A DNA stretch of 53,688 nt from Carpediemonas membranifera BICM. Lineage: Eukaryota; Protista; Fornicata. Location of the stretch: positions 1 through 53,688 of the forward strand of contig JAHDYR010000057.1 of the NCBI GenBank assembly GCA_019828565.1, given 5' to 3'. Shown piece after piece: positions 6,178 through 53,688 of the stretch; position 1 is the stretch's first letter, and each line of letters starts with the position of its first letter. The position numbers and the translations under genes are program-made. A model generated the notes under the pieces. That model made no database searches. It was not told where the DNA came from and saw only the letters and a program-made list of their open reading frames with translations.

Positions 6178-6676
6178 TCTTCGATTTTTGGTTGTGGTGG
6201 CGGGTTTCGCCCAAGTGGATATGAGAAGATCTTTGCCGATCGGCTGATTGAGTCAGCGTCGTCATGCGTATCAGTCGTTGGGGTGACTCAGTCTGGACTC
6301 CCGCGTGCTTTGAAGCACGGTTTGAGAGTTTGACCTGCCATGACCAGGTTGACCAGGTTGGACTGCGCCCAGCTGGCTTTGGAAAGAGAGCGAGAGGTGG
6401 CTTTTTCCCTGCTATTGTGGCTGGATTGGAGGTTCTGTGCGAGGGTATGGCGTTCACCCCGTCCCGGGTTCAAGGACGGCGGGTCGGGACTAAAAACGAG
6501 AGCATAGGACTGCTTTCTGGAACAAGCACGTTTCCACAGTCCCAAATCCTCTCATATCATGCTGTATCTCGAGAAATATTTTTTCATGCATGTCGTCGAC
6601 CGATGACACAAACGCAGACACGCCGGAAATGCGACATGAGACGTGAGGCAGAATCCCACAACTTAGAATCTAACTA

Positions 6677-7918
6677 ATGTTTCACGTAGACAAGCTCTAT
6701 GCATCCTCATTACTTCATCCAACCGAGAACGTCAAGCATTCCGCCTATGTTCCTGTCGCCGAGAGCGACACCAATAACTCACAACCTCTCACCAACACAC
6801 TCGATAACAGGCTCCTGTTCCAACACCCAGAGAAGGCAAGCAGCGACCCCATCGCTCTGTACAAGTCTGCATTGCCCACTGCCACATGCCACCCCGCCAC
6901 CTCGGCCTTCTCCAACCTCGAGCCAAGGTCACTCGGCCTAAGCTTCAGCCTCCTCGATGACTTCTACGTCAACCTTGTGGCGTGGAACTGGGAACGCCTG
7001 GTGCTCGGAGTCAATCGACGCGTCGTGCTGCTCCACCCCGGCACCGGCAACACACGCCCGCTGTACACCATGGATGCCCAGTGGGTGCACCATCGAATCA
7101 CCTCTCTGACTGTCAGCGCGGACGAGCACTTTGTAATCTTTGGTACAACCCGAGGTGGAGTTGGCTTCGTCGAGTCGCGACTCGGAAAGCTCTGCCTCAG
7201 GCATGTCATTGCCAATGTTGGTCGCATCTGCGTTCTGGCCGCCCACCCCCGCCTCCCACTCGTGGCGGCCGGGACCAAGTGCGGGTCGATATATCTGCTC
7301 AACTACCGCTCGGGCGAGATCGCAGAACTCATTGGCCACAATCAGGAGGTATGCGGTCTCCGCTGGTCGAACAACGGCACCCAGCTGGTGTCTGGCGGTA
7401 ACGATAGCACAGTCTATGTGTGGCGGCCCGACCTCGGCGACCTCTCAGCCACAGTCTGCCCATTCACCTCACTCCCGGGCCACAATGCGGCTGTGAAGAG
7501 TATCTGCTGGAATCCAGAGATGCCGCACATCCTCGCGAGTGGCGCCGGGTCCAACGACGGCTGCATCCGCATCTTCGACACCCTCACCCAGCAGTGTCTC
7601 GCCTGCATATCCACTGGATCTCAGGTGTGCGGCGTCGAGTGGGTGGACTCGACCCACCTTGCCATATCCTGCGGGTTTTCTGCTAACACTGTCAACATTT
7701 GGACCTGGAACGTTCAGACATACGCCCTGGGGCAGGAGAGCCTCATTGCCCAGCACAGGTGCAGGGCGCTCTTCCTCACAGCCAGCAGGGACGGCAAGAG
7801 ACTGGCCTCGGTGGCCCCGGATGGCCGCACATTCGTCTGGTGTCTGTCTGAGCGGAGGACAGCGAAGGACCTCGATGTTTGCGACCTCAGCGGGTTGTTT
7901 AGCAGGCTTGCAATGTGA
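6677..7918 (+). CDS. Cdc20/Fizzy-family WD40 APC/C activator (divergent)
   Basis: LDDFYVNLVAW, GHNQEVCGLRWS, LVSGGND, HNAAVKSICW, LASGAGSND and TGSQVC are Cdc20/Cdh1 WD40 signatures. Confidence 0.9.
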   Translation: MFHVDKLYASSLLHPTENVKHSAYVPVAESDTNNSQPLTNTLDNRLLFQHPEKASSDPIALYKSALPTATCHPATSAFSNLEPRSLGLSFSLLDDFYVNLVAWNWERLVLGVNRRVVLLHPGTGNTRPLYTMDAQWVHHRITSLTVSADEHFVIFGTTRGGVGFVESRLGKLCLRHVIANVGRICVLAAHPRLPLVAAGTKCGSIYLLNYRSGEIAELIGHNQEVCGLRWSNNGTQLVSGGNDSTVYVWRPDLGDLSATVCPFTSLPGHNAAVKSICWNPEMPHILASGAGSNDGCIRIFDTLTQQCLACISTGSQVCGVEWVDSTHLAISCGFSANTVNIWTWNVQTYALGQESLIAQHRCRALFLTASRDGKRLASVAPDGRTFVWCLSERRTAKDLDVCDLSGLFSRLAM

Positions 7919-22711: not shown

Positions 22712-24404
22712 TTACTCCGAGTCATCATCGTGCACCCTAGGTCGCTGCACGATCATTTCCCCGCCCATCTTGATCAGAGTGACGAACGACACCACGGCCG
22801 TGGCGACGAGGACGTACGGGACAACCATGGGGATCTCCCCGCCCCCGCCGATGATGCGGTATGCGATCAGCCCGCCAAGGCCGCACAGCAGCCCGAATCC
22901 CATGGCGACCTTCAGCCCGCCATGGTCTGCCACGGCCGAGACGGCGCGGAGGTCGACCCCCATCGTCACGGCGAGATCCATCCTGTCCTGCCGGGCCCCG
23001 TCGAAGAAGTTGCCGAGGATGTACCGCTTGACAGACTTGACGCCGTCGCTCATGGCGCCCTTGCGTGTCCTCAGGCCGTTCCTGGTGAAGTCGTCCTTGA
23101 GGGCACCGGTGCCGGCGTACTGGGTGCTGATGGCGTTGCCGTTGTCCGTCCACATCGCCCGGAACATCTCCTGGAACGACTCCGACTCCAGCTCAGTCGA
23201 TTCAGTCATCATCTTGAGCATGTGCTTGGCGATCATCGTCTGCACGACGTTCGTCCGATCCAGGCAGTCCTTGCAGTTGACCTTGGGACACCCGCGCTGT
23301 GGCGACCCAACCCGCCCGACACCGTCCTCCTTGAGGGTGACGGAGAGCTGCTCGATGAGGCCCGAGATCTTGTGGTACTGCATACCCTTGCACTCGGTGT
23401 GGAAGTCATACTCGATAAATGGGTCACCGGCCTCTGCGGCTGACTCCTTGAACATGCCGGCCAACTCGGCCTCAGGTCCGTGCAGGTCGAGTAGGGAGAC
23501 GCTCGTGACCCGCCCGTACCGCTCTGAAAGCCACCTCATGTGCTTGCCATACACTGCACTTTGAATACCGGAGTCGGGGTGCAGTTTGATGAGGGGGGTG
23601 TACTTGAGGTTGACTGACTGCTTCCAGCGGAGGGGAATGGACCCTCTGAGCTGCAGAAACGACTGCGGTGGGGTTTCGGGGTCGGTGGATGCGACTATCA
23701 TCTCTGTCTCAACAAAGTTGGCGACGCTGCCGTGCTTGTCTGCTCCTCTGCGGTGGTACCTCGTGCCGACCCTAGAGGTGTGGCGACGTGAGATGAGGAA
23801 GACCTGGTGGTTTTCGGAGTACGCGGATCCAACAAAGCCGCGGATCATGCGGACGAAGAAGGCCGCGGCCTCGCCCAGGGGCAGAAAGGACTTGTTCCAC
23901 CGGAACAGGTCGCCCGCATCCTCCTCCGTGTCCGACAGCCTGCGGGTCATGTCATACGTCCTCGAGAAGTACAGGCCCTCGGCCTCGAGCTCGTCACGGA
24001 TGTGCCGCATGAGCGAGAGCTCAAGGTCGTACCCCTTCCGCTCAGCAGTCTTCGGCTGGTCGAGGGGAACGGCCCTGATGGTCGAGGGGGCATGCCACTC
24101 GTGCTGGTCGTGGAGGAAGCCAGACGTGCCGTCCAGGACGTAGAAGAGAATCGGCGTGGTGCGGAATTGCTTCACACCAACGAAGCCCAGGCACTTGGTA
24201 TGAAGAATTCTATCCTCGGGGGCGTTACGTGCATGCGACAGGGCCTCATCGAGGGAGTCTAGGTAAGGTCGGGGGCGTAGACATACCGTACGGGTCATAA
24301 TGGAGGTCACCGTCAAACCAGATGTGGAGGAACTTCTGTTCTGTAGGATGATTGATCACAGCACCCCTAGTGCCCTTCCAAAGCTCTGGTTCGACGGGTG
24401 CCAT
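22712..24404 (-). CDS. SAC1: SAC1 phosphoinositide phosphatase; intron 24259-24286
   Basis: ISRRHTSRVGTRYHRRG, ANFVETE, RGSIPLRW, catalytic NCKDCLDRTNVVQ, QYAGTGALK, two C-terminal TMs. A 28-nt GTATGT...CTAG intron links ATG 24404 in frame. Confidence 0.93.
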
Positions 24405-31962: not shown

Positions 31963-32275
31963 GGTAAACATAGGAGGAATCTCGATTAGGGTGGTGGTAG
32001 CTGCCTGCTGCTACCTCGTGGTGTTTGAGGGAAACGCAGATTAGTGCCGTTCGTTGTGTGCTATTGAAGGGTCGAACAATGTGTTTATACTGCGCAACAC
32101 TGCCCTGTCTCCCTCCTACTCACGTCTTAAGTCGGTAGGGAGATCGTCTTCTCCAGGGCTTCCACAAAGCGTCTTCTTCGTGGACGTCAGCGCAGCTGCA
32201 AACATCACAATCGCACACGTCGTCTCATTGTCTTCTATTCCACATTAAATTCACTTCTTGGACAACCCCAGGTCA

Positions 32276-32470
32276 ATGGGCCGTCTGCTCAGCCTGAGCA
32301 CCGATGGGGTCTGTGTGGCGGTGACGGTTAAGCGAGGCGGCCACTATCGACCACAACATGATGCGAGCATGCCTGTTCGAAAGCGAGCGAGGGGGCGGGA
32401 GAAAGAGCGCCCCCGACTCGGGACCAATAATGCCGATGCTCCGCCCGCGCCGGATCCTGATGCCCACCTC
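32276..32470 (+). pseudogene. Fanzor (TnpB-like) nuclease, N-terminal remnant left of the LTR insertion
   Basis: SLSTDGVCVAV matches the Fanzor1-type 'TDG.sv.v' motif; ends …PDAHL at the CCTC TSD and rejoins 38516 in frame. Confidence 0.8.
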
Positions 32471-32579
32471 TGTGCCTCGCTAATGCGGAGAATGCTTTTA
32501 TATGGAAAGAAGAGAAAACCCTTGTGCCAATAAATGGCTTAAACTGTATAAATGATTAGTGTGGTCTATGACCACCACA
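32471..32579 (-). repeat. 3' LTR of element A (109 bp)
   Basis: Direct repeat of 38400-38511. Confidence 0.95.
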
Positions 32580-33317
32580 CTGCCCCTCCATGCCTGGGTA
32601 ATAGGCATGACACTCAACGAGTTACGGGGGTTAGGTTGGCCTAGGGTCATCCGTGTTATAGTTTGGTGCCACCCAAGCTATGCAACGGTCTACTCCATTG
32701 GCAGTGGAGTGGGCAACGCCCGACCCGCGGTCTTCCGATACGGAATTATGGTATCACCAACGGTGACATGGGAATAAAACCCGACAGCTGTATATGATAA
32801 CGTGGATCCACTGTGTAAGCAATTGCTATGTTACGTGTTAAGATGGTCTTACCAGGGCTTCGCCGCCCTCATGAACCGCATATAGGGTCCGAACTTACCG
32901 ACGTCAATGACAGTCAAACGGACGGCTAGGGTTCGCCCGTATTCATAGAGGCTTATCCCTGCCCCTCCACGGCCTCATATGGCCGTGTTTCGAAAATTAT
33001 TACATGTTACGTAGGCTTCTAACGTAATTCGGGGGTTGATCTTGGCGTCTTCGTCAATAACACGAAGTACTGTACAATTTGCGCTAAAACTTACGTAGAC
33101 GCCGAAAAAGGCATTAATCGGCTCCGAAACGCCTTCGTTGGCGAGTTCTGGGCCTTTCTTTTTTCTTGGCGAGAACGTACTTCAATAACAACATCAGCTG
33201 GCTTCTGATGAAGCTAATAGGCTACAGCACTTGGTAAATAGATGAATTAGCTTGATTTGGCGTTCTATTATTGCTCTAGGTTTCGTCCTTGAGCCGATCG
33301 TTCCAAAAGTGCAGGAT

Positions 33318-34399
33318 ATGTCGTCGTCAACTCAGTTGATGTCGGACAACGCAGCCGTAGAGGCAATTCTGGATACCATTCGCGCGAAAATCGTCGAAAT
33401 TGGTGACGAGGAACTCACCAAGCCTCTTGTTTCCGCCCATTCCGCCGTATGTCGCTCTCTTCGTGCTCAAACACGTACTCAGCGCAAGCGCTTGGCCTCC
33501 GGTAACCTGTAAGTAACAAATATCAATCAACCACTCATCCAGGCACCGTGTACAAGCCGCAGAGCGTGTTACTCGACCCGTGACGGCATCTATGAATCTT
33601 CCCCGCGACATCAGAGCTGAGGTCTCCCGGCGCCTGAATGGCTACAGCAACTCGATTGAAATGCCTCTTCAGCGTATCTTCGACGCCATTGAGCAGGGTC
33701 GCCTCCACGACGCCGCGGTAGTCACCGATGTTAAGAAGTCTCGCCAGATTCTTAACCTCGTGGCTTACTGCCAGTTCGCTCTCGCTGGGGTGGTGACCCA
33801 CCTCAAGATCAAGCTGTGCCCGACGCTCACTGATGGCGATATCGTCTCAGCAGCCCTCCGGAGTGGCGACATCAGCCTGACCGGTAGTGGGCGCTACTCT
33901 GCCGGGCTCGTGGCCGCAGTTCGCGCTGCTGCCGGTGTCACGTCGGATACCACGGCTCGCGGATACCTCAACCGCCTGCTGATCCTCGTCCTCTCGCCCG
34001 ATTACTTCCGAGTGGCACTCTTCGGGATCAGCCGCTGCATCTCAGCTCCCAGCGCCTTCTGGGCGACCCTGGTCGACGAGCTGTGTCGCGAGGGTCACCT
34101 GCCTGCGATCGGTGACGAGGTCCACTGGGAGCCTATTCAGGTCTCGGACCCGGACCGTTACTACACCGTGACGTGTGTTGTCCGTCATGAATTCCTCAAA
34201 ACGACTCGTGGACCTGGGACCTTCGCTCTCATACTCCAGTATGAGGGGTTACTCTGGCCTCAGCATCGTCTGGCTGAACGCCGATCTCTGTCTCGTCCGT
34301 TGTGTGCGCGACTATCTTGCTGAGCACGATCTTGAGCGCCACGCTGACGCGTCTTGGTTGGTCGAGCTGACCGATACCGAGGAGTCGGACGACGAATAA
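33318..34399 (+). CDS. Antisense accessory gene inside element A (~348 aa after splicing 33509-33542 and correcting one extra G at 34245-34248); chromodomain-like C-terminus
   Basis: A GTAAGT…CCAG 34-nt intron joins ORF 33252-33512 to 33580-34323 in frame. The C-terminal part reads YTVTCVVRH…LILQYEG/YSGLSIVWLNADL…VRDYL, then an acidic tail. Confidence 0.7.
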
Positions 34400-34441
34400 A
34401 TCTGATGACTTGACGCTGGAGCGATTAGATGTGGTGAAGAT

Positions 34442-37400
34442 TTATAGACCGTCCAGTTTGGCTTGGTCAGACTTCAAATATATATCTAATGCTTCCAGGT
34501 CCTTGACGGAGTCCCAATCCTGCCATGTCGCCTCCTCGTCCTCGAAACCAGACCAGTGAACGCGGTATTCGCGTTTGGTTCGTGTTCCGTTCCCTCGCGA
34601 TTTGGAAATACGGTCCACTTCCCACTCATCGTTCGCCGTGGCGGCCAAGTCCTTGATCTCTCGCTCGGATAGATTGCCAGGGTTAAATCTGCGTACGCGC
34701 GAGGCGTCGACCTTCAATATCTTGCCTTGGCTTCCCTGGTTGAGGTCCTGAACTTCATAGGCGACCGTCACGCCATCTTGCTTAACCGCACTGACCCGTC
34801 GCATGGGCCCTCGCCATCCTGGCATCAGCTTGTTGGGAGGTCTGGCTGGGTACTTGACCAACACGAACCGGCACAGTAACTCCTGACGTGACGATGCGGC
34901 GTTTGCGAGAGCGTCCTCTCTCATTGCCTGAATTCTAGCCTTCGCTAGCTGGATGGCTTGGCCAGCCGCCGCGCGTCTGTCCTGTATTCTGGCGCTAGTC
35001 GAGTGGGTGCAGATGATGATCTCGTTCGGGATCCTGATGTTGACACCTAGTATGATCTCGGATGGTGAGAGGTGAGTGGGTATCCTGGGCGTCGAATTGA
35101 CGATAAATTGTGCGACAGGTAAGTGCTTGACCCAGTCCGCGTCCCGGAAATGGAACTTTCTGGCCTTCAAGATTTTGAGAACTCCACTGTTGGCCCGTTC
35201 GACGATGCCATTAGATTGCGGGTGATGTGGAGTCGTAACATGGGTGTGGAAACCCATCTCGTCGGCCAGGGACTTCATGAGCTGATTGTTAAACTCGGGC
35301 CCGCCGTCAGTCTGTAAGACCTCGGGGCAGCCATAGCGTAAGACCCAGTTATTAACGAACGCCGTAACTGCGGCTTGCGCAGTCGTACCTGTAACTGGAA
35401 CCAACTCGGTCCACCTACTACACATATCTATGATGACGGAGATGTGCGTGAACCCCTGCGACTTGGGGAACGGACCTAAGGTGTCGATGGCTACTCGCTT
35501 AAACGGTTCATCAACGGCGGTATGCAGACCATCCGGTGTATCGACGTGGGGTCTCTCGAGGACTTGGCACACCGGGCAAGCTGCAATCACCTGGTCGACT
35601 GCGGCTCTCGACACCGACAACCCTTCGGCTCTAAGCTTCTCGGTCGTTAGTCGTCGAGATAGATGGGCGCCGGCGGTGGTGTGTGCTTCTTCAATCTCAT
35701 CGGTCGTAGCTTTGCGAGTGAACATAGTAAACACACGGGACAGACCATCTGCGGCTCCATTGTCCAGGCCGGCGACGTGCTTAATCTCAAAGTCCAAGTC
35801 GGAAATGGCATCGGCCCACCTCCTGACTTTCGGGTTGATGCTACGGTACATGAAGGTAAGGTTTCGGTGGTCAGTGAGTATGGAGAAAGGTCCCCAGGCA
35901 AGGAACTTGCGCCAGCGCTGCAAGGCCGCCACAATGGCGTACGCCTCCTTCTCAATCGTTGACCAACGAGACTGTGTGGCGTTGAAGGCCTTCGACATGT
36001 AACAGACAGGCTTGCCCTCTTGCAATAGGACTGCGCCGTACCCCACTCCCGAGGCGTCGGTCATTATAGAATGCTCCTTCGTGGCGTCGAAAATTGCTAG
36101 GGCGTCAGCGGAGGTAAGGTTCTGCTTGAGCTTATCGAGGGCCTCCTGCTGGGCGGTCAGGCCGAGACTTGTGTGACCGGACATAGCTTTGATTAACGGG
36201 TGTCCGATTTCCGCAAAATGGGGGATGTGATCCCGGAAATAGTTGAGGAATCCTACTAGGCCCTGCATGCCCTTGATGGATGTCGGCATCTGGAGATTTG
36301 CGATGTCGTCTACACGGCTGGGTGCGATGCTCACCTGCCCATCATTGACAACCCAACCTAAGAACTCGACCTCCTGCCTGCCGAATTAGCATTTCTCGCG
36401 ATTGAGCTGGAGCTTGACCTTACGCGCACGGTCCAGGACTCTTTCGAGGTTCGCGAGATATTCGGCCTCGTCGCTGCCGAAGACAATAATATCGTCGATG
36501 TAAATGTAACATGAGCTGCCCACGAGCCCGGCGAAGGCGCGCTCCATGGCCTTCTGGAAGTGAGCTCCTGCGTTGCGCAGCCCGAAAGGCATCCGTCGGT
36601 ATTGATACTGCCCTAGTACGGTGGTAAATGCAGTCAGGGGTCTTGATCGTTCTGTCAAAGGGATCTGGTGGTACCCGGACGACAGGTCTAGAGTCGCGAA
36701 GATCTTCTGTCCTGCGAGCTGTGACAGCACCTCGTCGATACGAGGGATGGGGTAGTCGAACGGCTCAGTAAGCTCGTTAATACGGCGGAAATCGACTACG
36801 AAACGCGACTTGCCTCCCTTCTTAGGCACAGTCATAGCTGGGGAAGCGTATTGTGACTGGCAGGCCTCGATATATTTCTTGGCTAGCAGCGTGTCGATGT
36901 GCTCTCTCACGACGTGTATCTTCGCTGGGGGTACATAGTAAGGTCTGGCGTTCACGACCCGATCGTCCTTCAGAACGAGGTCGTACGGCTCTAGCCTGCT
37001 AGGTTCGTCCCGGTCTTGGAATAGATCGGAGAACCTCTTGATCAGTTCGGCTTGACTCTTGGTCGACTGGTCGGATAGACTAAAAATGGCAGCGTTGTGC
37101 TTGAAAGCTTCGGGGACCTGGACTTCGTCCGAGTCTTCCCCTGACTCTACGTTCACGTCGGGGAGGATTCCCAGCTCGACAAGGTGGGGGTACCCCAGGA
37201 CGACGTCGAACTCAGTATCTAGCACAATCAACTCCGGCTTGAAGGACACTGCCTTAGGTGTAAAGGCTGACGGCATGAGTTTGATGTTCCCTTGCACGGA
37301 ACCTTGGGACTGTATAGTTCCCTTGGCTGTACGCACGCTTCGCTCTTCATCTGATATACGCGTCATACCCTTGGTCAGCTTGGGGGATATAGTGGAGCAG

Positions 37401-38379
37401 TTGGCTCCCCGAATCAATCAAGGCAACGACGTCTCGACCCTCGACCTTAACTTTGCACAGAGGTAGGCTATCTTTGCGTTTGTGTGAAGTCATCGAGAAC
37501 AAGGACAAGTACTGTGGGGATTTACAGAACCTGTCAAGGTGTCCGCTCTTCCCGCACTTCTGACACTTGTTCTTGGGCTTCTTACACTCGTAGACGGCGT
37601 GACCCTTACCACCACAGTTATAGCAAATGAACTGTGAATGATCACGTCTGCCCTTCTTGTCGATAGGCTTAGTCGACGCGTGTTCAGGTCTGGTAGCATG
37701 CGAACGGTCTTCGGTGGGACGTGACTGAGGCTTGCGATCGTTGCGTCGGTGGGAGTTACGGCTCGTGTGGTGGTGCTCGGCGTTGGACGGCTTGTCCTGG
37801 AACGCGTTGGCGATCGCGGTGCTCTCTTGGACTGTTCTGGATAGGGCTAGAACGCGCGGCATGGCATCTTCTAGCGACATGTCCTGGATCACCTCCTTGA
37901 TGCGGTACATCGTCTGGTTGGATCCGAACTTGGAAACAACGAACGTATATGTCGCGTAGTGTCTCGAGGGGGAACTCGGGTTGGACGACTGCCATGGTAA
38001 TACGGAACTTCTTGTTGACTCGAGCAACTTCGATAGGGGAGAAGTCCTTGGCGGTGATTCTAAAGAGACGGAGCTTGTTGACTTCTTGAGTAGGTCTGAG
38101 AGCGCGTCCTAGGCGCTTGATGATCTTGAGGTCCTTCTGGGCTCTGGAGCGAGCGGCACGATGATGTTGATTAAGGAGGAGAGGGATCTCTTCCTCCGCG
38201 TCGTCAAGATCGTCCGCTGGTAGGATTGCTGTCACCATCTCCCGAACCTCGCTGTCGATTAGCTTCTCAATGTCTCGCTTGCCCCCTAAGGCGCGGTAAT
38301 CGTTGAACTTGTCCACAAAGATGAACAGTTCGTTCAGATCTGGCGACTTCAGCAACGGGGGATCGGATTTCTTCAGCAT
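34442..38379 (-). pseudogene. gag-pol of element A (two CCHC knuckles, protease, RT, RNase H, integrase, chromodomain); two frameshifts and one in-frame TAA as assembled
   Basis: CYNCGGKGHAVYEC, CQKCGKSGHLDRFC, ALIDSG, LDLSSGYHQI, YIDD, TDASG, TDHRNL, DGGPEF, SNGIVERAN, PGWRGP, WEVDRI…VHWSGF…TWQ. TAA at 36386-36388. Confidence 0.95.
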
Positions 38380-38399
38380 TTGAGGGGAATTAACGTTAA

Positions 38400-38511
38400 T
38401 GTGCCTCGCTAATGCGGAGAATGCTTTTATAGGGAAAGAAGAAGAGAAAACCCTTGTGCCAATAAATGGCTTAAACTGTATAAATGATTAGTGTGGTCTA
38501 TGACCACCACA
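38400..38511 (-). repeat. 5' LTR of element A (112 bp)
   Basis: Direct repeat of 32471-32579; gag ATG 20 nt downstream on the minus strand. Confidence 0.95.
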
Positions 38512-38515
38512 CCTC

Positions 38516-39334
38516 ATGGGGTTCGACCCGGGCGCAAGGTCCATCGGAGGGTATTACATCAGGCACCCCGATGGCACCACCAGCACCGGCGTCCTTCCAA
38601 AGTGCGGATACACTAAGACGCCAAGTTTCGGCTTTGATATGACGGCCGCGTCGTTCAAGAGCACAAGACTAGTGAGTATCAACAACTCTATTAGGTTTGT
38701 GCTGGACAACGCGAACGACATTTTCGAGGCTGGAATGCGTAAGTCTTTCCGCCGAGTGCGCTTTGCGAACCACATCCTTCGCCAGAAGCACTTCGCCCGC
38801 TGCGGCCAACAGTTGGCTCGGGAGTTCGGTTGGCGTCGCCACCATCCCATCGCCACCCCCATTCGCCTGAAAGTCTTCTACGGGAGCTCGGGATTCACCA
38901 CGCCTGCTGGTATGTTCATTCCTTGCGCGCCATATCGAAAGTTCGCGAGAGAGATTGTTCCCCTTCTCAAGGGGTATAACATTGTCGTCGATCTTAACAT
39001 GGTTAACGAGGATCGCACAACCGTCGTCTGCCCTCACTGCCACGCCCCCTACAAGCGAGTTCGTCCGCGTGATGACCAGCACGTTCACCCACATCGTGTG
39101 ATGCTCTGCGAAAATCCACAGTGCCGTGGTGCTCAGTGGCGCGCAACAGTTCCTGATGCTCTGAATGTTGATCATCGGGACAAGAGTGCTGCAGAGAACA
39201 TCTTGTGGCGTTCTCTTGCCACGGAAGATGAGCTCGGTGGCTCTCCGTTCAGTCGCACCTCGATCCCACGTCTTCAAACATCATTCCAGTATCATCAATT
39301 GGCTAACCGCCAACATTCGTCTACGGACGGATGA
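38516..39334 (+). CDS. Fanzor (TnpB/Cas12-related RNA-guided nuclease), RuvC/zinc-finger portion
   Basis: RuvC-I GFDPG; FRRVRFANHILRQK helix; VFYGSSGF; RuvC-II VNEDRTTVVCPHC; HRVMLCENPQC; RuvC-III HRDKSAAENI; terminal PFSR. Confidence 0.9.
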   Translation: MGFDPGARSIGGYYIRHPDGTTSTGVLPKCGYTKTPSFGFDMTAASFKSTRLVSINNSIRFVLDNANDIFEAGMRKSFRRVRFANHILRQKHFARCGQQLAREFGWRRHHPIATPIRLKVFYGSSGFTTPAGMFIPCAPYRKFAREIVPLLKGYNIVVDLNMVNEDRTTVVCPHCHAPYKRVRPRDDQHVHPHRVMLCENPQCRGAQWRATVPDALNVDHRDKSAAENILWRSLATEDELGGSPFSRTSIPRLQTSFQYHQLANRQHSSTDG

Positions 39335-39487: not shown

Positions 39488-40695
39488 GCCCCTGTCGGTT
39501 GAAATCATTTACAGTAAACCGCAGCGGGGTAAAAGTGGTCAAAACTGGACGGAGCAGTTTATAGACCGGTGACACTACCTCCCTTTTTGATGAGAAAACC
39601 CCCAACCTGCAAGGAACGGGGGAAAAAGATGGTTAGTAGAGTTTCAGGTTCTTCCTCGCCTTACGGGCCAACCTCTTCATCTCCTCGAGGTGTTTCACTC
39701 CCGAGAGTGGTTCTTCCGTTATGTTTTCGAATCCTACCCACTTGATGGCGGCTGTCCCTTCTTTCCAGTCTACCGATACTACTCGCTCTACCTCCCATTT
39801 TTTCTGGTCGAAGCTTGCAAGTTGAAGCATCATCGTGTCCGTTACGGCATCCGTGTCGAACATCATGAGTTTTTCAATGTGGGTTGATCTGGTCGATCCG
39901 TCGAGTATCGACTGCAGGACTATTCTGTTATTATCAAGTACATCGTGTACCTTCCATGGGCCCCTGTCGGTTGAAATCATTTACAGTAAACCGCAGCGGG
40001 GTAAAAGTGGTCAAAACTGGACGGAGCAGTTTATAGACCGGTGACACTACCTCCCTTTTTGATGAGAAAACCCCCAACCTGCAAGGAACGGGGGAAAAAG
40101 ATGGTTAGTAGAGTTTCAGGTTCTTCCTCGCCTTACGGGCCAACCTCTTCATCTCCTCGAGGTGTTTCACTCCCGAGAGTGGTTCTTCCGTTATGTTTTC
40201 GAATCCTACCCACTTGATGGCGGCTGTCCCTTCTTTCCAGTCTACCGATACTACTCGCTCTACCTCCCATTTTTTCTGGTCGAAGCTTGCAAGTTGAAGC
40301 ATCATCGTGTCCGTTACGGCATCCGTGTCGAACATCATGAGTTTTTCAATGTGGGTTGATCTGGTCGATCCGTCGAGTATCGACTGCAGGACTATTCTGT
40401 TATTATCAAGTACATCGTGTACCTTCCATGGGCCCCTGTCGGTTGAAATCATTTACAGTAAACCGCAGCGGGGTAAAAGTGGTCAAAACTGGACGGAGCA
40501 GTTTATAGACCGGTGACACTACCTCCCTTTTTGATGAGAAAACCCCCAACCTGCAAGGAACGGGGGAAAAAGATGGTTAGTAGAGTTTCAGGTTCTTCCT
40601 CGCCTTACGGGCCAACCTCTTCATCTCCTCGAGGTGTTTCACTCCCGAGAGTGGTTCTTCCGTTATGTTTTCGAATCCTACCCACTTGATGGCGG
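39488..40695 (-). repeat. 472-bp tandem repeat (~2.6 apparently identical copies) of the 3' end of element C: integrase tail + chromodomain + PPT + 82-bp LTR
   Basis: Units start at 39488, 39960 and 40432. They encode RGPWKV…WEVERVV…IKWVGF. PPT AAAAAGGGAGGTAG precedes a TGTC…GACA LTR at 39493-39574, 39965-40046 and 40437-40518. Confidence 0.92.
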
Positions 40696-43600
40696 TGTGA
40701 CCCTAAACTGCGGGAGTTGGTTGCATAAAACTCATTCGTAACACGGCACAATATCGATATTACCGGTGAAATGAAGCAATTCACGACTAATGATCCAGAA
40801 AGCGCAATCCAGGCGCTCGCGGATTACACCACTGCAATTATCCACGAGAGAAACCCAACTTCTTTCATCCAAACGCTCACAGCGGACACGGTCGCGAAGT
40901 TAAAGCGTGATTGGCGTCCGACAGCGAAATTTCCCACTCTTGAGAGCCTCCAGACCTCCATTATGTCTGACGCCGAAGCCCGAGCTCAGGCCCGTTCGGA
41001 CGAGGCTCCGCAAGCTATATCCCACAATCCCACCGCAGATGCAATCGCCAAGCGTTTCGCTGCTGCCTTTGAGGCGGCCTGCAAGCGAGCGCAGTACGCA
41101 GAGTGTGTGCGGGTCTCTTCAAACTTCAAGGACCCGGCCCTCACCAGCCTGACAAAGGAGTCAATCTCGGCAGAGATACAACGCGCAATCCCGGAGGCCA
41201 CTGAGAAGGCCAGGACATTCATCACCTCGTACATGAAGGACCCCGCGGCCAACAGATGGTCCGACCTCTTCAGCGCCGCAACCCCGACTGTCCCCGTGCC
41301 TGACGGGACCGACATGACACTCCCAGATTTCTCTGACAAGGTCCCGGAGCCCACCATAGATGAGAAGCCCGACCTGGCCGCCTGGCCAAAGCGTGCTGAT
41401 TTCCCCGACGTTTACGCTTACCTCCGCGCCGAGGCAAAGGCGATCATCCCCTACATCGTTTATACGCTCCTACCGACCCTCGACATGGGATCGAGACTGA
41501 AGATGGTGCGCGACAAGGCATCCGGCCTTAGATTCTTCGGCCCAGCCGTCGAGCACCGACTCGCCGTCTTCAAGCTACGTAGGATCCTCAACGCTTACGA
41601 TCCATGCGTCCCAGACATCGAGGCACTAACCTACAACTCGACCGAGCGCTTACTGGGGTCGATCTTCCTCAAGGGCTATAGCAAGGACGCCGAGGCTCTT
41701 TACGAGGACATCATCGAGGACCCAGCCGAGTCAATCGACGATCTTCTTTCTCGCCTCGAGAACCTCGACGTCGATCACGACGAACGCGTTATTGTCCCGT
41801 GGCGGGCGTTCGCGGTAACATCCCAACCCGCCGACCAGAAAGACAGCGGCCGTCGCGCCCCTGGCAAGCAAAAAGCCGACAGTACTGCCCCATACAAGCG
41901 ATCCCTATCTCCAGTTCAAAGACAAGCACAAGTATGCCATCCCACAGCACTTCAACAAGTGGTGCAAGTCTCATGGGTGGATCAGTAACCATACGACAGA
42001 GTCATGCAGGTTCCTCGCACGGCAGAAGGACAACCAGTCCAAGGGCACCTCCGGCTCCTCTCAGCCGCGGAAGAACGACCAGAAGCAGACCAGCGGTACG
42101 CAGTCCGACCGTCGGGCCGGCAACATGTTCCTGAGGGACTCCTCAAAGCTTCGCAACTCGCGCGGCCAGCGCGACGTCCATGAAGTCGACAACAACGCCT
42201 CAGATGACGCCGAGTCCGAGGACGAAGGTGACGTCTATGAGGTGGGGGCTGTTGAGATCGACAACGACCCCATCAACGTCCCGGCCACGATCAACGGTGT
42301 CCAAATCAAGACGAAGTTCGATATCGGAGCCTGCGTCTCAGTCATCTCGGAGCCCGCACTAGCGAAGGTCCCGAATTACCAGCTCATCGACACCTCAGTC
42401 GAGCTCTTCGGCGCCGGCGACGAGGTCATCTCCATCGGTAAGGCCGCAAAGGTCGACATCACTCTCCCGTCTATCGATGGCAAGACCGTGCAGGCCACCG
42501 CATTGCTGATGGTGATCCGCGCCAAACGCCGAAAGGTCCTGATCGGCCGCGACCTCCTCAGAAGGTTGGGCTACCTCATGAACGACAGACTGCTGATCCC
42601 GTCATCCGCCACCATCTCCGACAACGACAATCTGCCTCCACACCCGTATCTCGACTCCTGCACAGATGAGATTGATGTTGATAACGAGTGGAAGAAGGTC
42701 CGAATCCCTTACGATGACAATCCAGACCTCACTAAGTGGCTCGAAGGCTTCCTATACGAACGCCGCGAGCTCTTCGGCGAGCTGCCAGAGGACGGCAGCG
42801 AGTTGCGTCCACACAAGATCACCCTGAAGCCTGGCGACCACAGGCTCCAGAAGGCAAGACCACGCCCCCTTAAGGGTTCCCAAGCGTCCAGCGCCGCCGC
42901 TGAAATCGACAAGATGCTCCAACAATTAGTCATCCGCCCAAGTGACTCGCCGTACTCATCCCCACACGTGATGGCGAAGAAGAAGAACGGTGAGGACAGG
43001 TTCTGCGTCGCGTATAACGTTCTGAATGAAGCCACCGAAGACGATCGCTACCCGACACCAGATATCCGCTCCTTCGTCCATGAGGCAAGCGGCTGCTCAC
43101 TCTTCGGCACGCTCGACCTCCGAAGCGGCTACTGGCAGCAACGTATGGACCCCGACAGCGTCTCACTCACCGCCTTCACTATCCCAGGCGGTCATTACGA
43201 GTTTCTTCGTACCCCCTTCGGGCTCAAGAATGCCCCGGCCAAGTTCCAGAGAGCGATGGACGAGGTGTTGGAAGACTGCAAGAGCTCCAAAGCCTACGTC
43301 GACGATATCTTCACTTACTCGCACACGGAGGAAGAGTTCAAGAGCGCCATCACGGATCTCTTCGATCATCTACTGGCGGCCAACGTCAGACTGAAGGCCG
43401 ACAAGTGTGCCCTCGGCCTCTCCGAGGTTGAGGTGTGCGGCTTCATCGTTAACGAGATGGGCAGATCCGTTGCCCCCGCTCGAGTCCAGGCCATCCGCGA
43501 CCTCTTTCCTCCGACCACCACGTCGGAACTCCGTCGATCCCTCGGCAAGTTCAACTACTTGTCGAATTACATTCCCCATCTCGCCGACGCCGCAGCACCT

Positions 43601-45560
43601 CTCAACCGGCTGCTTAAGGGCTCTCCGGGGAAGTCGTCCCCCGTGGCCTGGGGCGCCGAGCAGGACGCCGCTTTCGCTAAGATGAAAGACCTGGTCACCG
43701 AACACACGGCGCTCGCCCTCCCAGACTTAGACAAGCCCTGGACCTTGGAGACCGATGCCTCCTCAGTAGCGATCGGCGGGGTCCTCTGGCAGGGCGAAGG
43801 AGTTGAGAAGGTTCCCCTCGCTTTTTATTCCAAGACCTTGGACGAGACTCAGCAAAGGTGGTCGACCGTCGAACAGGAGCTTTACGCGATCATCCACTGT
43901 GTAACTCGACCGGAGTTCTCAGCCCTCCTTAAGATTAAGCCGTTCTCTCTCAGAACCGATCACCGGAACCTTATTTGGCTCCTGAGAAAGACGGACGAGG
44001 AGGGCACGAAAAAGCTTACTCGCTGGCGCCTGACAATGACCGAATACCCCTACTCCATCGCCCACATCAAGGGCGTCCACAATGTCGTCGCCGACTCGCT
44101 GTCCCGTCCTAGCAGCGTCCCAGAGGACCGAGACGACCTCAAGGCCGCTATCGAACAGGTCTCCAGTTCTCACCGTCACCTCATCAACCAGGCCCACGCC
44201 GGTGCACAGGGCCACGTCAGCGTCGCTCAGACGATGGAAAATCTCCGCAACGCCGGGCAGTCTTGGCCCGACATGAAATCGGACGTCCGGGGAGACCCTC
44301 AGAAGTTGCGCCGTCTGCCAGAAGGTTAGACCCCCTGCCCGCGAGAAGACGAAGTGGCACTCCACGCAGCGACTCAAGCCCTTCGAGACGGTCCAGCTTG
44401 ACACAATAGGCCCCCTTCCGGAAGAGGCCGGCATGTCCTACATCATCACGATCGTGGATGTCTTCTCCAAGTTCACGATCCTCCGTCCGGTCGCTACTAC
44501 AAAGGCCGAAGAGGCTGCAGCAGCGATGCTGGATGTGTGGTCCACGTTCGGAGTCCCAAAGGAGATTCAAACCGACCAGGGCACTCAATTCCGTAACGCC
44601 CTCATTGCCGAGTGTAACGCCATCATCAGTCTTCAGCACAGGTTCTCAACCCCTTACCATCCGGCCAGCAACGGAGTCGTTGAACGACTCAACGGCACGA
44701 TCATGTCTCGCATGAGAGCGCTCCTCCTAGACGCAGAGGACGGCAACTGGCCCGCCTATTTACCGCTCGCTCAACACGTCATCAACTCTACCCGCCACGC
44801 CACCACCGGTCGCTCCCCTTTCGAACTGCTGTTCGGCAAAGAATCGACGCTACGGGTCGCCCCGATCGCTCTGGCAAACGCCACGAAGAGCTGCACCCCT
44901 GGGAGCGTTGATGAAGGTGAGATTGTCCGCTTCCAGGAGGACGTAGCCGCTCTACAAGCCCTCGCCCGCGTCAAGATTCGCGCGTACGAGGCGCGCAAGG
45001 CCAAGGCCACAGCAGACACTCATGCGTGGGAGAGAGAACAATACGTTCTCCTGCGCTACCCGGGCAAGCCCCCGGCTAAGATCTACACCCCCCTGCGCGG
45101 ACCCTTCCGCATGGAGGGGAAGGGCGAACACCCGAACACCTACCGCGTCCGTGACCTCGTCACAAGATGCGTCAGCACGGTCCACGCCGACAGACTGGTC
45201 CGATTCGAGACCGATTTATCCGACACCGAGCTCGAGCGGATCGCCGCTTTCGAGCAAGGCGAACAGCCCGTCAAGGAGATCGTCGGTCACAAGAAGAAGA
45301 AGAACGGCTCATTGGAGCTCCTCATCCGTTGGGAAGGCCTCACACCCGACGAAGACTCCTATGTACCCTATAACCGGTACTATGACCAGCTAGCGGCTCT
45401 CGATGATTACCTCGTCGCTCATCCAGAGCATGAAGCCGCGTTCGCCGCCGCCAAGAAGAAGTTCCGCAGTTCCGGGCGCCGTTAATGCGTCCGCATGGGG
45501 GGAAGTGTGACCCTAAACTGCGGGAGTTGGTTGCATAAAACTCATTCGTAACACGGCACA
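40696..45560 (+). mobile_element. Element B: full-length Ty3/Gypsy chromovirus with identical 55-bp LTRs; no TSD
   Basis: TGTGACCCTAAACTGCGGGAGTTGGTTGCATAAAACTCATTCGTAACACGGCACA at 40696-40750 and 45506-45560; PPT GGGGGGAAG at 45497-45505; flanks GGCGG / GTTCG differ. Confidence 0.95.
40771..45485 (+). CDS. gag-pol of element B (CHHC knuckle, protease, RT, RNase H, integrase, chromodomain); two 1-nt frameshifts as assembled (~41870-41895, ~44290)
   Basis: WCKSHGWISNHTTESC lies in the pol frame; FDIGA, LDLRSGYWQ, YVDD, ETDAS, TDHRNL, TDQGTQF, SNGVVERLN, RGPF, VKEIVGH…IRWEGL. Confidence 0.93.
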
Positions 45561-46059
45561 GTTCGAAGTTATCTCACATGACCAGGATATCTACACGTTG
45601 AAGAATCCTGCCGATGAGAAGCCGTTGAAGTTTCATATTTCCCGCTTGCTGCCTTATACCTCTCCCGAAGTACCTGTAGACGATGTTACGTTGGTTGCCC
45701 TGGATTCTGACGAATATCCAGTTGAAAAGATCGTTGCACACCGCAAGGGAAAGACGAAGTCTCGTTGGCAGTTTAAGGTCCGTTGGGATGGCTATGGCCT
45801 GGGAAGGCAAATTCGGGTCCGGGGTCAGATACCAAGCAATCTTAAATTTCTTTCTTTCTTTCTTTCGGATGGCTATGGCCCCGACGACGATCAGTGGCTC
45901 GCGTACCACGATGTGAAGGACCTCAAGGCCCTGGATGAGTATTTGGAGGCTCATCAGGAGCTTCGCCTTTAGGTGGGAAGTGTCGTGCAGTTTAAGGTTA
46001 TGGTCTGCGAACCCAACCTGCGAACCCAATAAACACAGCATCAACCAACTGCTTTAACA
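45561..46059 (+). mobile_element. Element D: 3' remnant of another chromovirus (integrase tail, chromodomain, PPT, ~79-bp LTR at 45981-46059)
   Basis: FHISRLLPY, EYPVEKIVAHR…FKVRWDGYG/PDDDQW; stop at 45972; purine-rich tract AGGTGGGAAG followed by TGT…ACA. Confidence 0.8.
45800..45866 (+). mobile_element. 67-bp retroposed insertion (5'-truncated LINE/SINE-like) with (TTTC)5 tail and 14-bp TSD
   Basis: GGATGGCTATGGCC at 45786-45799 and 45867-45880 flanks an insert ending in TTTC x5. Confidence 0.8.
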
Positions 46060-47820
46060 TGGAACATTGCCACAACGGTCGAGTCGTCTGTCTGGTGTTT
46101 GATGAGTGTGTCATGGTAGCGGGAGTCAATCGTGATGGCTGCGACAGTGGGCGAGGTCGAGTGACCGCAGCGGCTCAGCGCGTCTGCGACTGCGTTCTGT
46201 GTTGAGAGGTTTGAGGATTCGTGATGAGTCCGGGACGAACTGGGCGACATAGTTGAATGATCCCAGTGTCCTCTGAAGCTCCTTTGCGGTGGACGGGAGC
46301 GGTATGGCGTTTACCGCCTCTACCTTCTCTGGGGCAAGTTGTTTCCCCTTCTCCGAGACAATATACCCGACGGCCTCGACGTGGGCTGAGCCTATCGTGC
46401 ACTTCGGGCCTTTAAGGCGCAGTGAATAATGTCTACAGATCCTGAAGACGGTTTTGATCAGGGTGAGAAACTGGGCCTCGGTCTTGGCGTAAATCAAGAT
46501 GTCGTCAAGATAGATGTCCACCCCTTTGTGGAGGACCTCGGCGAACGCCTTCTGCATGGCGCGTTGGAATCTCGCCGGGGCGTTCATCAGGCCGAATGGA
46601 CATCTGGTGAACTCGCAGTATGCGTCTGGAGTGACAAAAGCGGTTTTGGGGATATCTTCCTCGTGCATCCGCATCTGGTAGTAGCCTTGTCTGAGGTCTA
46701 GGCCTGCAAAGTATTTGCAGCCTGATGCTCGGTCTACAAACTCGCGCGTGTTAGGCAGGGGGAAGTTATCCCTCACTGTCTTGGAGTTTAACTCCTTGTA
46801 GTCAATGCAAAGACGGATCTTGGTCGATCCTTTGTGGCCCTGCCTGACTACTACGATCGGCGAGCTGTACGGCCCAGTCGAGTCCTGGATTATCCCGTCT
46901 CGCCTGAGTTGTTCTAGCTCTGTCGACACCAGGCCTTGGGTCACTGGGTCGAGTCTGCGAGCGCGGCATTGTACAATTGCCCGCTCGTCTATCAGTTCAA
47001 TCGACATGGGTTCCAGTCGAGACCCTTCCTTGGGTAGTTCTTCCTCGAAGATATCGTCAAATGAGTTGATTATCTCGAGAATCTCGGGTCGGATCTTCGA
47101 CTCCGGGACGTGGACACCACAGTAGTCGTCGGTTATCGCCATGTTTGCGTCCTCCGTGAGATATTCATGGTAGAACGGCAGCCAGTCCTCGTCCTCCTCA
47201 ATTGAGGAGAGCTTGTGCAGGTTAAGGTTGAGTGTGCCATCGCCAATGAGTGCGAGTGACCTCAGCAAGTCACACCCGATGAGAGCCTTGAAGAACTCAC
47301 CGGGGAGTACGTAGTACTTCCATGTAACCTCCAACGGTGTGACACCTAGTGCTGGGAATGCTGCCTTAAATGTGACTGCTTGATCTGTCACGAGGGAGCG
47401 TCCGTCTCCTAGCGTGACCTTGATCTTTTCCTCGAGAGAGGTCTGCACTGTGTCCTTGGGTAGGGTACGTAGTGCCTTCGAACTAATGAAGCTTCGGCTT
47501 GCACCAGTGTCTACAACGAACGAGTAAGTTTTGCCTTTTACAGTAGCGGGGGTCGTCAGTGGACCCTTCCCGCCCTTCTCGTTAGTCGACGCGCTGTCGG
47601 CGTTGTTGTTCTCGCTGTAGCGGGGGTGCTTATCGCATCTGAAGTCCATGTGGGGACCGCCACAGAAACGACAGGGGCGCGACGGCTTCTTGGGTCCGTC
47701 GGCCGGCGGGCGCTTGGCCGCGTCCGGGCGGTACTGGGCCTTCCTGGCCTGGGCCGGGGCCTTGGGTCCGCCGGCCGGGGTTTGCGAGAGGGGTTGATCA
47801 TGGTCATACGCCCTACATAC
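46060..47820 (-). mobile_element. Element E: internal Ty3/Gypsy fragment (gag tail, protease, RT; RNase H mostly deleted)
   Basis: CRFCGGPHMDFRC, VVDTGAS, LDLRQGYYQM, YLDD. The sequence jumps from LKPL to QNAVADALSR and is truncated on both sides. Confidence 0.88.
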
Positions 47821-48072
47821 TGTCAACATCCCTAGATTATCTTTGCTAAACCCTAGATTATCTTCGACCTCAAAACGCTAGATAATCTACAATTTCTTGC
47901 TCAGAAATGAAGTATTCATTAAATTTAAGCTATTTAGAGATAAACGAAGGTCTTCTTTAGAGTCCATATGATGTACGTAGAGCATGGAAAGAAGCTCTGG
48001 CTCTGACTCCTTGCCTGGTTTGAGCATTTCGCCGTGCAGGTTAAGACGAAACGATAAAATGGACAATAACAG

Positions 48073-48176
48073 AAAATCTAACAGGTAGATTCACTACGAT
48101 AGTGATTATGTGAGTAGTTGAAAGGAGGTACATATGCGCATAATCACTTTCAGAGTGAATCTACCTGTTAGATTTT
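48073..48176. repeat. Long hairpin: perfect 23-bp inverted repeat enclosing a second 10-bp stem
   Basis: AAAATCTAACAGGTAGATTCACT (48073-48095) / AGTGAATCTACCTGTTAGATTTT (48154-48176); inner AGTGATTATG (48101-48110) / CATAATCACT (48139-48148). Confidence 0.9.
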
Positions 48177-49754
48177 GAGATATGGTCGATTTCTTGTTTT
48201 TTGACTTGGCTAGAGTCGAATTGAAGAAAAGGAGAGGCTATTACTCAGGGAATATTGCTCGTCAAAGAAAAGCAAGCAAGGCCGCGAGGTATGGCCACCC
48301 GACCTACAAGATGGGCTGGGTGACATCGCGTAAGGACGACTGGTCTTGCGCGGTCAACGCTGACAAAACTTAGCGATTCAGAGAAATAAATGGCGCCACC
48401 GTATTCAGCACAAGGCAGTGAACTCAGCTATATGTTTTTTTCTCAGTATATTTACCCAGCGGCTGATCCCACAGTTTAAGGACGGGTATTAGCCTGCACT
48501 TTGCATGAAAAAATTATGCCTGAACACGACCAATTATCCAAAACACAGCATTTAGCATGCAACAGGAGCTGGAAGCAGCTGCAACATCTATTCTAGGCCA
48601 TTCCACAACCATTACGCAAGAAATTGACGCAATAGAGGCCATTCAGTCCCATTACTTCATAGATTCACGCTTGAACGATATTACGAGCCTTATCAGGCGA
48701 GAAACAAGAAAGCTGAACGCGATTGGTGACTCCTTTCTCGCTGAGACATATGCAGCATACTGACAGCCACGACACGCTGTTCAAGCAGATTTAAGGGAGC
48801 GCCATCACCAAACACGTAAATAGACCTGTATACGACAACCAGAGACGGACGTATGAGTCAGAACGGTGTGCTACCGGAATACGCAGGGTGTTTTGTGCCC
48901 TGTTGATTCCAGGAGCACGCTGCTCTGGGCCACGTGAGATACCGCGAGACTAAATCCGATCTTTACTATCTCTTACATATGCAAATATCATGAGTGTGTC
49001 CCTGCTCGTGAATGGGAACATCCAGCCAGTCTGAGTCAAAGCTACGGTCTGCTTTCGACAAGACAGTGCGCCATAGGCCGTTGACTAAACACCATGTGCA
49101 GCTTTTGGCACTCAGTCGACCTCTGTTTGAAGGTCAAGTGGATGGTCTATGGAAGAAGGTGTTGAGGTAGGGCTCGTGTTTGACGGGCAATGAGGAAGGA
49201 GAGATCTCACTGGATGTGTGCATCTGCGGCAAGTATGAGTAAAGAATGAAAACATGATTGGTAGTTATAGATCGCGAGAATAGGCATTCTCATCTGCATT
49301 GCGGAGAAAAGGAGTTGATGTTGTATTAAGAAAAGGACGAATGCATTATCAGCCATTTGAATGCATGGCTCCAAACTACACGCGTTTTGGCGTTGATATT
49401 GATTATTAAATGCACTGTTGGTAGCCTATTGAGGGATTTCGTCACTGTACTCGAATGCACAAGTGTGCATTTTATGCTCGCAACGAGACTGAAATGGCGA
49501 ACTGACGAATAGAAAGAATACGCTGCAAAAGGGGGCACAATGCGCTCAGAGAGCGATACTGCCGACAGTATCGTCTTTTCCTTCATCTGACATTGTAAAG
49601 AGGAAGAGTTTATGATTGGAGCATAGCTGATGTCCATAAACACCATTCATAAGCCAGTCCTGGCTTGTTTTCCACTGCTACTTCTCTCGTTGCGACGCAC
49701 AGCTAGCTGTCGCGAAATGCACTTTAAGACCAATTTTCACACAGCTACCTGTGC

Positions 49755-53072: not shown

Positions 53073-53688
53073 AGAGTAAAGGATTGATATACCGACCGTA
53101 TCGCTTATGTTTATGTGACCTTGAGGTTGATTCGCGGTTTGTAGGTGGGTATGGTGCTATATTACTCAGCCTGCTGTATATGTCTAGTCTACAGCCTGTA
53201 TGCAGCTGTCTGTGGTGGTAAATATCGTCGGCTGGCCGAGAAAGCATAAACTGCACACTTGTGCATTCGAGTACAGTGACAGAAATCCCCTCAATATGCT
53301 ACCAGCAGTGCACTTAATAACCAATATCAACGCCAGAAACGCGTGTAGTTTGGAGCCGTCCAGTTTTTGCGCTAGTAATGCCTCCAAAACCCTTTTAATC
53401 AACATCATCTTCTGTTATCGACCATGTCAACGAGAATGATCAGAATAAACGACGATTTGGCACTGAATGAACCTTGTAATGAGACTGGTCAGAAGCCTGT
53501 GGACTTCGCTCGCAGCTCTCCGTCGCAACATCAAAGATCGTCATCGAGGACATGAAGATCGGAGGCTCGAGGCTCGAGGCGCTCAAAATCAGCTCGGCTC
53601 AGCTCGGCACTCAAAACTCAAAAGGCGAAAATCGGAAATCAGGCGAGGCTCGAGACTCGACATCAAAATCCGGCAGGCTTTTGCGTAG

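Follow-up and report, generated by a model that had tools for sequence, protein, structure and literature searches.

What does a spliced gene running against an LTR retrotransposon encode, and what could its protein do for the element that carries it? This question is raised by a locus in a 53,688-nt stretch of DNA (hereafter the window; contig JAHDYR010000057.1, positions 1 to 53,688, assembly GCA_019828565.1) from Carpediemonas membranifera BICM, a free-living protist that belongs to the metamonads. Introns that lie antisense to the genomic RNA persist through reverse transcription, and a preliminary description of the locus had proposed such a gene, with a second chromodomain-like module at its end, inside the retrotransposon that is called element A here.

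Element A is a 6.0-kb Ty3/Gypsy LTR retrotransposon in a window of long intron-poor eukaryotic genes and several retroelements, and its features are listed in Table 1. Its minus orientation was assigned from the polypurine tract. Pfam recognized RVT_1, RT_RNaseH, rve, and Chromo (2.1e-06) in pol, and the domain order is gag-PR-RT-RH-INT-chromodomain, in which the protease was identified from a DSG motif only. The integrase chromodomain is intact, with a W/W/F cage and a TWQ motif. As sequenced, the gag-pol of this copy is broken at three places, comprising two frame breaks and one in-frame stop in pol (TAA, 36386-36388); contigs from public runs drop one letter at 37932 in gag. The closest matches of pol were 53-54% identical (P0017 and P0027), followed by protist or environmental sequences at 27-37%, and chromodomain-bearing Gypsy lineages are reported outside the chromoviruses in the available text of PMC12477816. 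The 5' LTR is not followed by a primer-binding site of the TGG type; the palindromic TTAACGTTAA stands there instead (38380-38399, minus strand), and gag starts about 20 nt past this LTR.

Table 1. Coordinates of element A and its antisense accessory gene in the window.
Feature	Position (strand)	Basis or remark
TSD CCTC (4 bp)	32467..32470 (+); second copy 38512-38515	sequence; contigs of the empty site
3' LTR, TG..CA	32471..32579 (-)	1 substitution and one 3-nt indel relative to the 5' LTR
Polypurine tract adjoining the 3' LTR	32580..32589 (-)	sequence
Possible leader intron, 351 nt, GTAATA..CATAG	32598..32948 (+)	weak; joint 32597/32949 in X1/X2, side of only 26 letters
Coding exon 1	33318..33508 (+)	ATG 33318, 191 nt; predicted helical; QRKR at 33480-33491
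Spliceosomal intron, 34 nt, GTAAGT..CAG, antisense to the genomic RNA	33509..33542 (+)	skipped in X1/X2 contigs
Coding exon 2	33543..34399 (+)	one extra base in GGGG 34245-34248 breaks the frame in the copy as sequenced
Best-predicted helical part, with helix-turn-helix-like motif at 33916-33978	33832..33978 (+)	P0005 model
Predicted chromodomain, three strands and a helix, cage Y / Y / Y	34138..34336 (+)	fold of a relative's domain; alignment
pol: RT, RNase H, integrase, C-terminal chromodomain (about 34475-34624)	34442..37417 (-)	Pfam
gag: zinc knuckles (zf-CCHC) and start of the protease	37347..38379 (-)	Pfam; frame breaks near 37932 and 37407
5' LTR, TG..CA	38400..38511 (-)	sequence

The empty insertion site was also seen, in contigs whose loose end at 38510 matches the left flank. 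Element A interrupts an ORF on the plus strand (32249-32470 and 38512-39334) whose reading frame continues across the empty site (..PDAHL / MGFDPG..). This ORF has GFDPG, NEDRTT, CPHC, and RDKSAAENI motifs and gave a weak Cas12f1-like TNB match in Pfam (E 0.05); we liken the motifs to the RuvC and the zinc finger found in TnpB/Fanzor nucleases. Since contig depth is in the thousands over 32057-32470 and 38510-38800, the interrupted ORF is a multi-copy, apparently transcribed repeat with deletion derivatives.

The window also contains a second chromodomain Gypsy element, B (40695-45560, plus strand), which has 56-nt terminal repeats and no accessory gene. Directly ahead of it, units of 472 nt are repeated in tandem (about 2.5 copies, 39488-40731). 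A piece of a further integrase chromodomain, interrupted by an internal insertion (45517-45972, plus strand), and a protease-RT remnant (46126-47877, minus strand) were also found. Further on, there are a 54-nt hairpin and an inverted repeat pair of about 90 nt spaced 3.9 kb apart (48057-48192, 49343-49435, and 53288-53381), possibly a DNA transposon.

Between pol and the 3' LTR lies the accessory gene, on the plus strand, antisense to gag-pol and converging on pol. The convergence had been described with stops some 40 bp apart, and the two TAA codons (34397-34399 for the accessory gene, 34442-34444 for pol) are indeed separated by 42 nt. Both genes end in TAA followed by ATCT (34395-34400 and 34440-34445), and AATAAA overlaps the accessory stop. 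A 17-nt imperfect inverted repeat links the ends of the two genes, and several host stops are also TAAA.

Removal of the intron fuses exon 1 in frame to a 268-codon frame (33517-34323). When the interval between pol and the LTR was shuffled 2000 times by a Markov model, a stop-free frame of at least 268 codons on either strand arose 10 times (0.5%), and GC content by codon position was 65/47/69% in exon 2 compared with 35% in the intron. There are 63 short GT..AG candidates like the 34-nt intron in the window, so that the motif by itself is not evidence. The contigs of X1 and X2, however, skip exactly these 34 nucleotides (side 120 letters), giving the 33508/33543 junction, and omit one letter at 34245. 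In X1, a single 913-nt contig shows both the splice and the one-letter gap, with one other difference. A 28-nt GTATGT..CTAG host intron at 24259-24286 is likewise skipped in X1/X2, and depth varies from gene to gene; we therefore took X1 and X2, whose kind is not on record, as RNA, and counted them once, as they are apparently one data set deposited twice. The contigs carry no strand information, and the plus strand of the transcript was inferred from the sense of GT..AG. No run's contigs cover 34410-37503 in pol, and this gap was not used as evidence. A diverged copy in X3 retains an intron-like stretch ending in TTCAG ahead of the same exon start. The size of the intron had been said to match that of the host introns, which fits the sole host intron seen (28 nt, n = 1). 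Another in-frame GT..AG candidate, of 36 nt at 33447-33482, was rejected, as the contig that covers it does not skip it.

In the copy as sequenced, exon 2 is broken at a run of four G, past which a frame shifted by one base reads YSGLS..VWL..VRDYL to the stop codon. With one base removed at 34245, the accessory protein has 298 + 1 + 49 = 348 aa. The other copies, which were examined as database proteins and as contigs aligned to the window, agree with this repair: P0004 (a single residue changed in 245 aa), P0001, and P0005 cross the point in a single frame. Because these proteins and the contigs read through, the extra base is an assembly slip or a copy-specific mutation. Over 47 aa, exon 1 shares 53% identity with the N-terminal part of P0003/P0005, and the second Met (33339, MSDN) agrees with the start of these two proteins, so that the true start may be there. 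These results indicate that the antisense accessory gene is real, spliced, and open in RNA-like contigs and in other copies, and the splice, the in-frame join, and the 348-aa product of the preliminary description all stand.

The preliminary description had also placed the gene's own promoter in 32580-33317. A plus-strand transcript was found, but its promoter is probably not confined to that interval. A 911-nt contig of another copy (48 differences) links the LTR, from 32507, with the leader and exon 1, to 33418. Together with the weak leader joint in Table 1, this contig suggests that antisense transcription begins within the 3' LTR or ahead of it, no later than position 32572 or so if the joint holds. 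Transcription from in or just before the 3' LTR would be independent of gag-pol, and a separate antisense transcript would allow the protein to be made without particles. The intron, being antisense to the genomic RNA, would stay unspliced there and thus survive reverse transcription.

The ORF had been expected to be conserved among copies, and at least 15 named gene records, 30-99% identical and all from Carpediemonas membranifera, belong to the family. The database proteins 98-100% identical to the accessory protein come from this species. A tree of 7 rows gave three well-supported groups, whose identities to the window protein are 77-100% (P0004/P0001/P0005), 32-34% (P0011/P0015), and 30-32% (P0016/P0009), and 38 positions are invariant in four family representatives. 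Since the identical sequence is recorded at several loci (P0007 at three and P0011 at two), the family is consistent with a mobile gene. A basic cluster occurs at the same place in the window protein, P0011, and P0016, that is, in all three subfamilies, and it includes the QRKR that had been likened to a nuclear localization signal. P0006 was counted as a copy; its C-terminal two thirds match an element-B-type gag, and it is probably a mis-joined gene model. P0008 and P0010 were dropped as repeat-driven false matches.

Database searches with exon 2 and with the alignment revealed no homologue outside Carpediemonas membranifera. No significant family was found for the accessory protein in Pfam, PHROGs, NCBIfam, and PDB-sequence searches, and Pfam gave no match of any kind, including the PHD finger and the GPY/F module. 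Of the pattern matches in metagenome and viral contigs, none of 405 and none of 70, respectively, was confirmed as a relative. Among 80 metagenome loci related to pol, 47 had an integrase-type chromodomain (15 of the 47 with at least 1 kb downstream), none had one on the minus strand, and none gave a significant family match; as most of these loci are short, the comparison is a weak one. One unrelated metagenome Gypsy element (L048) carries an antisense ORF of 295 codons immediately 3' of pol (6124-7011, minus strand), which is acidic, helical-looking, and without a Pfam match. The neighboring elements B and C in the window contain no copy of the accessory gene.

This distribution bears on whether the gene is a mere passenger, that is, a captured host gene or a remnant of another element with no role for the retrotransposon, in which case its diverged relatives would be host genes or other elements. 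Its absence from elements B and C and from the 80 pol relatives would fit such an origin. However, identical proteins occur at several loci, motifs are conserved in open frames at 30% identity, and the second copy shares the link from LTR to exon. Nor does 32560-34460 contain repeats that would mark the ends of a nested element, except short, chance-sized pairs, and the lack of a homologue beyond Carpediemonas membranifera speaks against a passenger as well. We regard a passenger as quite unlikely. It is also conceivable that the antisense RNA rather than a protein is the working product and silences the element via double-stranded RNA, a possibility raised for antisense ORFs in the available text of PMC7264820. 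Conservation of the protein in three subfamilies, together with a domain predicted to fold, requires that selection acts on the protein, and the GC bias by codon position likewise argues for a coding function, which makes a working RNA very improbable.

The C-terminal part of the protein had been likened to a chromodomain from its residue pattern, and structure prediction favors this likeness. The C-terminal 69 aa of P0011, which are 40% identical to the window's subfamily, were folded with four relatives including P0004 and gave three strands and a helix (pLDDT 86.3, pTM 0.71). In a structure search of 48,161 chains (VIA), the Oxpecker chromodomain came first (Z 6.8, rmsd 2.0, 53 residues aligned), next to Chp1 with a Z of 6.7 and an rmsd of 1.8; the tool advises caution for Z values under 8. 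By their titles or known content, ranks 1-39 of this search are chromo, chromoshadow, or chromo-containing proteins throughout. The Foldseek list was also filled by chromo and chromoshadow domains, with a best E of 0.03. In profile comparison against 22 integrase chromodomains, the domain scored 25.8 (P 1e-4, probability 57%), and 100 column shuffles reached at most 17.8; against the three chromodomains of the window the probability was 15%.

Other searches gave less. No family member matched Pfam Chromo at E up to 10, and six proteins scored -1.2 to 2.7 bits with an HMM of integrase chromodomains, inside the range of shuffles. In the full-length model of P0005, which is closer to the window protein than P0011, the C-terminal part had a pLDDT of about 50, and PH-like domains (Z 5.0) came ahead of chromodomains (Z 3.3-3.7). 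The ESM Atlas held no usable feature match for P0005 or P0011 258-330, and its structure rows were below a TM of 0.3 by query. A homodimer prediction of the domain, run without controls, scored 0.03. On the whole, the models make it very probable that the C-terminal part has a chromo fold.

The cage positions Y, Y, and Y/F are aromatic in all five aligned domains, and the canonical W45 is Tyr in each of them. The TWE motif is gone, with IVW/IVS/CTG/IVA in its place, and the acidic stretch is also lost. The H that follows the first strand and the helix with YL are similar to those in the integrase domains of element A's clade. For comparison, the group I cage is Y24, W45, and Y48, with TWE on strand 3 of retrotransposon chromodomains (PMC3350952, PMC3605345, available parts). 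Shadow domains keep W45, miss Y24 and Y48, and have extra helices, and most of them are without TWE, as far as the available text of PMC3350952 goes. By its residues, the predicted domain belongs neither with the standard group I chromodomains nor with those of group II, nor is it a typical shadow domain, and methyl-lysine binding may have been lost with the change of W45 to Tyr and without TWE.

The middle of the protein is predicted to be helical. In the P0005 model, residues 111-190 had a pLDDT of 67-86, with helices at 158-168 and 173-188 and a four-residue turn between them. In all three groups the sequence at these helices resembles a helix-turn-helix. The helical part matched the Cdt1 C-terminal domain weakly (Z 4.8, rmsd 4.1, 81 aligned), and full-length fold searches found nothing clear in PDB or BFVD.

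The explanation that we favor, with a probability of roughly 40%, is that the accessory protein is a nuclear trans-acting regulator that binds the chromatin of the element and eases its silencing. In this mechanism, which rests on predicted structure, the basic cluster would bring the protein into the nucleus and the helical middle would bind DNA. The chromodomain, putatively derived from a copied integrase chromodomain, would bind a histone tail or a chromatin protein. The protein lies outside Gag-Pol, and the integrase already comes with an intact chromodomain; for these reasons the protein is more likely to act on integrated copies than within the particle. A more specific and doubtful form of the proposal is that the fusion of a duplicated integrase chromodomain with a helix-turn-helix is a sequence-specific, VANDAL-like factor that counters the silencing of its own family; the host would be a protist whose chromatin machinery is unusual, and the fusion would have been kept in three deeply diverged subfamilies.

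The same fold could also serve the opposite end. The protein might be a self-limiting or neutral regulator in which the chromo fold is a chromoshadow-like protein-binding module, for example one that recruits host repressors or damps gag-pol. The loss of W45 to Tyr and of the acidic and TWE stretches is in line with this, the HP1a chromoshadow domain was the best Foldseek row, and shadow domains came within 1 Z unit of the top of the structure search. Retroviral antisense proteins that regulate their own viruses provide a model (PMC11963269, available text). Positions 24 and 48 are aromatic in the predicted domain, though, which is the opposite of shadow domains as given in the accessible part of PMC3350952, and we judge the self-limiting or neutral role somewhat unlikely.

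An integration-targeting cofactor, bridging the pre-integration complex to chromatin as proposed for chromoviruses and the REM1 reverse ORF, would explain the similarity to integrase-type chromodomains. The MAGGY chromodomain targets H3K9me (PMC3350952, available text), and the present copy of element A is inserted in another repeat and not in a host gene. The integrase already bears a chromodomain of its own, however, and a separately transcribed protein would have no built-in route into the particle. For these reasons we consider a targeting cofactor unlikely, and the regulator that eases silencing remains our preferred reading.

Splicing of an antisense retrotransposon gene is also reported for brtn of Boty. 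Antisense ORFs between pol and the 3' LTR (aORF-3R) are described in maize Grande (gene23), rice RIRE2, Silene Retand (TRP28), and Botrytis Boty (brtn); in the available text of these sources they lack a known function and their proteins resemble nothing (PMC7264820, PMC11963269). More precisely, most aORF-3R products have no clear similarity, and the antisense protein of Grande is found in the nucleus and expressed from a promoter of its own (PMC7264820, available text). The accessory gene resembles them in position, antisense orientation, own transcript, a basic cluster like those of nuclear import, and apparently conservation among copies. It differs from them in that its protein has no match to their Pfam families, its host is a metamonad, and a chromatin-reader fold is predicted. 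PMC12786077, available in part, was also among the sources of this comparison.

As the accessory protein combines a predicted reader fold with transcript evidence and variants at 30-99% identity, the idea of a chromatin regulator is directly testable, although to our knowledge there are no genetics for Carpediemonas membranifera. The results suggest that elements can put an integrase chromodomain to new use as a free-standing protein. They likewise suggest that some 15 genes listed as "hypothetical" in the host are accessory genes of transposons. They are limited to a single species, with precedents for the layout and for a reverse-frame chromodomain. In the literature covered, mostly outside subscription titles, we found no account of this gene, nor of an element in which a spliced antisense gene supplies a second chromodomain besides that of the integrase. 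The layout is less new than the preliminary description implied, as REM1 has a reverse-frame chromodomain ORF (PMC2774666, available text). The available main text of the Carpediemonas genome paper mentions no retrotransposon, LTR, or chromodomain, and its searchable supplements no LTR/Gypsy (PMC8516963).

Both REM1 and element A are Ty3/Gypsy elements with a reverse-frame chromodomain, which in element A is predicted. The PHD finger of REM1 is said to lie in the reverse ORF. According to the available texts, REM1 of Chlamydomonas reinhardtii has a reverse-frame truncated integrase that keeps the GPY/F module as well as the chromodomain (PMC2774666, PMC6673714, PMC9940879), and the PHD finger is tied to its original description (Perez-Alegre 2005; PMC6673714). 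In contrast, the pol of element A keeps a full integrase (rve and Chromo), and the predicted antisense chromodomain comes in addition to it, putatively as a diverged copy that follows an unrelated, helical region. The accessory gene is therefore an aORF-3R by layout and not an ORF of the REM1 type.

The proposed logic would be the same as that of VANDAL anti-silencing proteins and EpiLTRs, in which an element-encoded chromatin factor acts on the element's own copies (bioRxiv 10.64898/2026.05.21.726589, available text); neither homology to these effectors nor an enzyme domain was found in the accessory protein. The predicted domain is like the group I integrase chromodomains (MAGGY, Tcn1-like) in its three strands and helix and in the first and third cage aromatics, and differs from them in the Y at W45, the missing TWE, and the lack of fusion to an integrase (PMC3350952, available text). 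In SM1-Galahad of Selaginella, the chromodomain sits in a separate downstream ORF3 and replaces that of the integrase (PMC3350952, same portion), whereas element A adds one.
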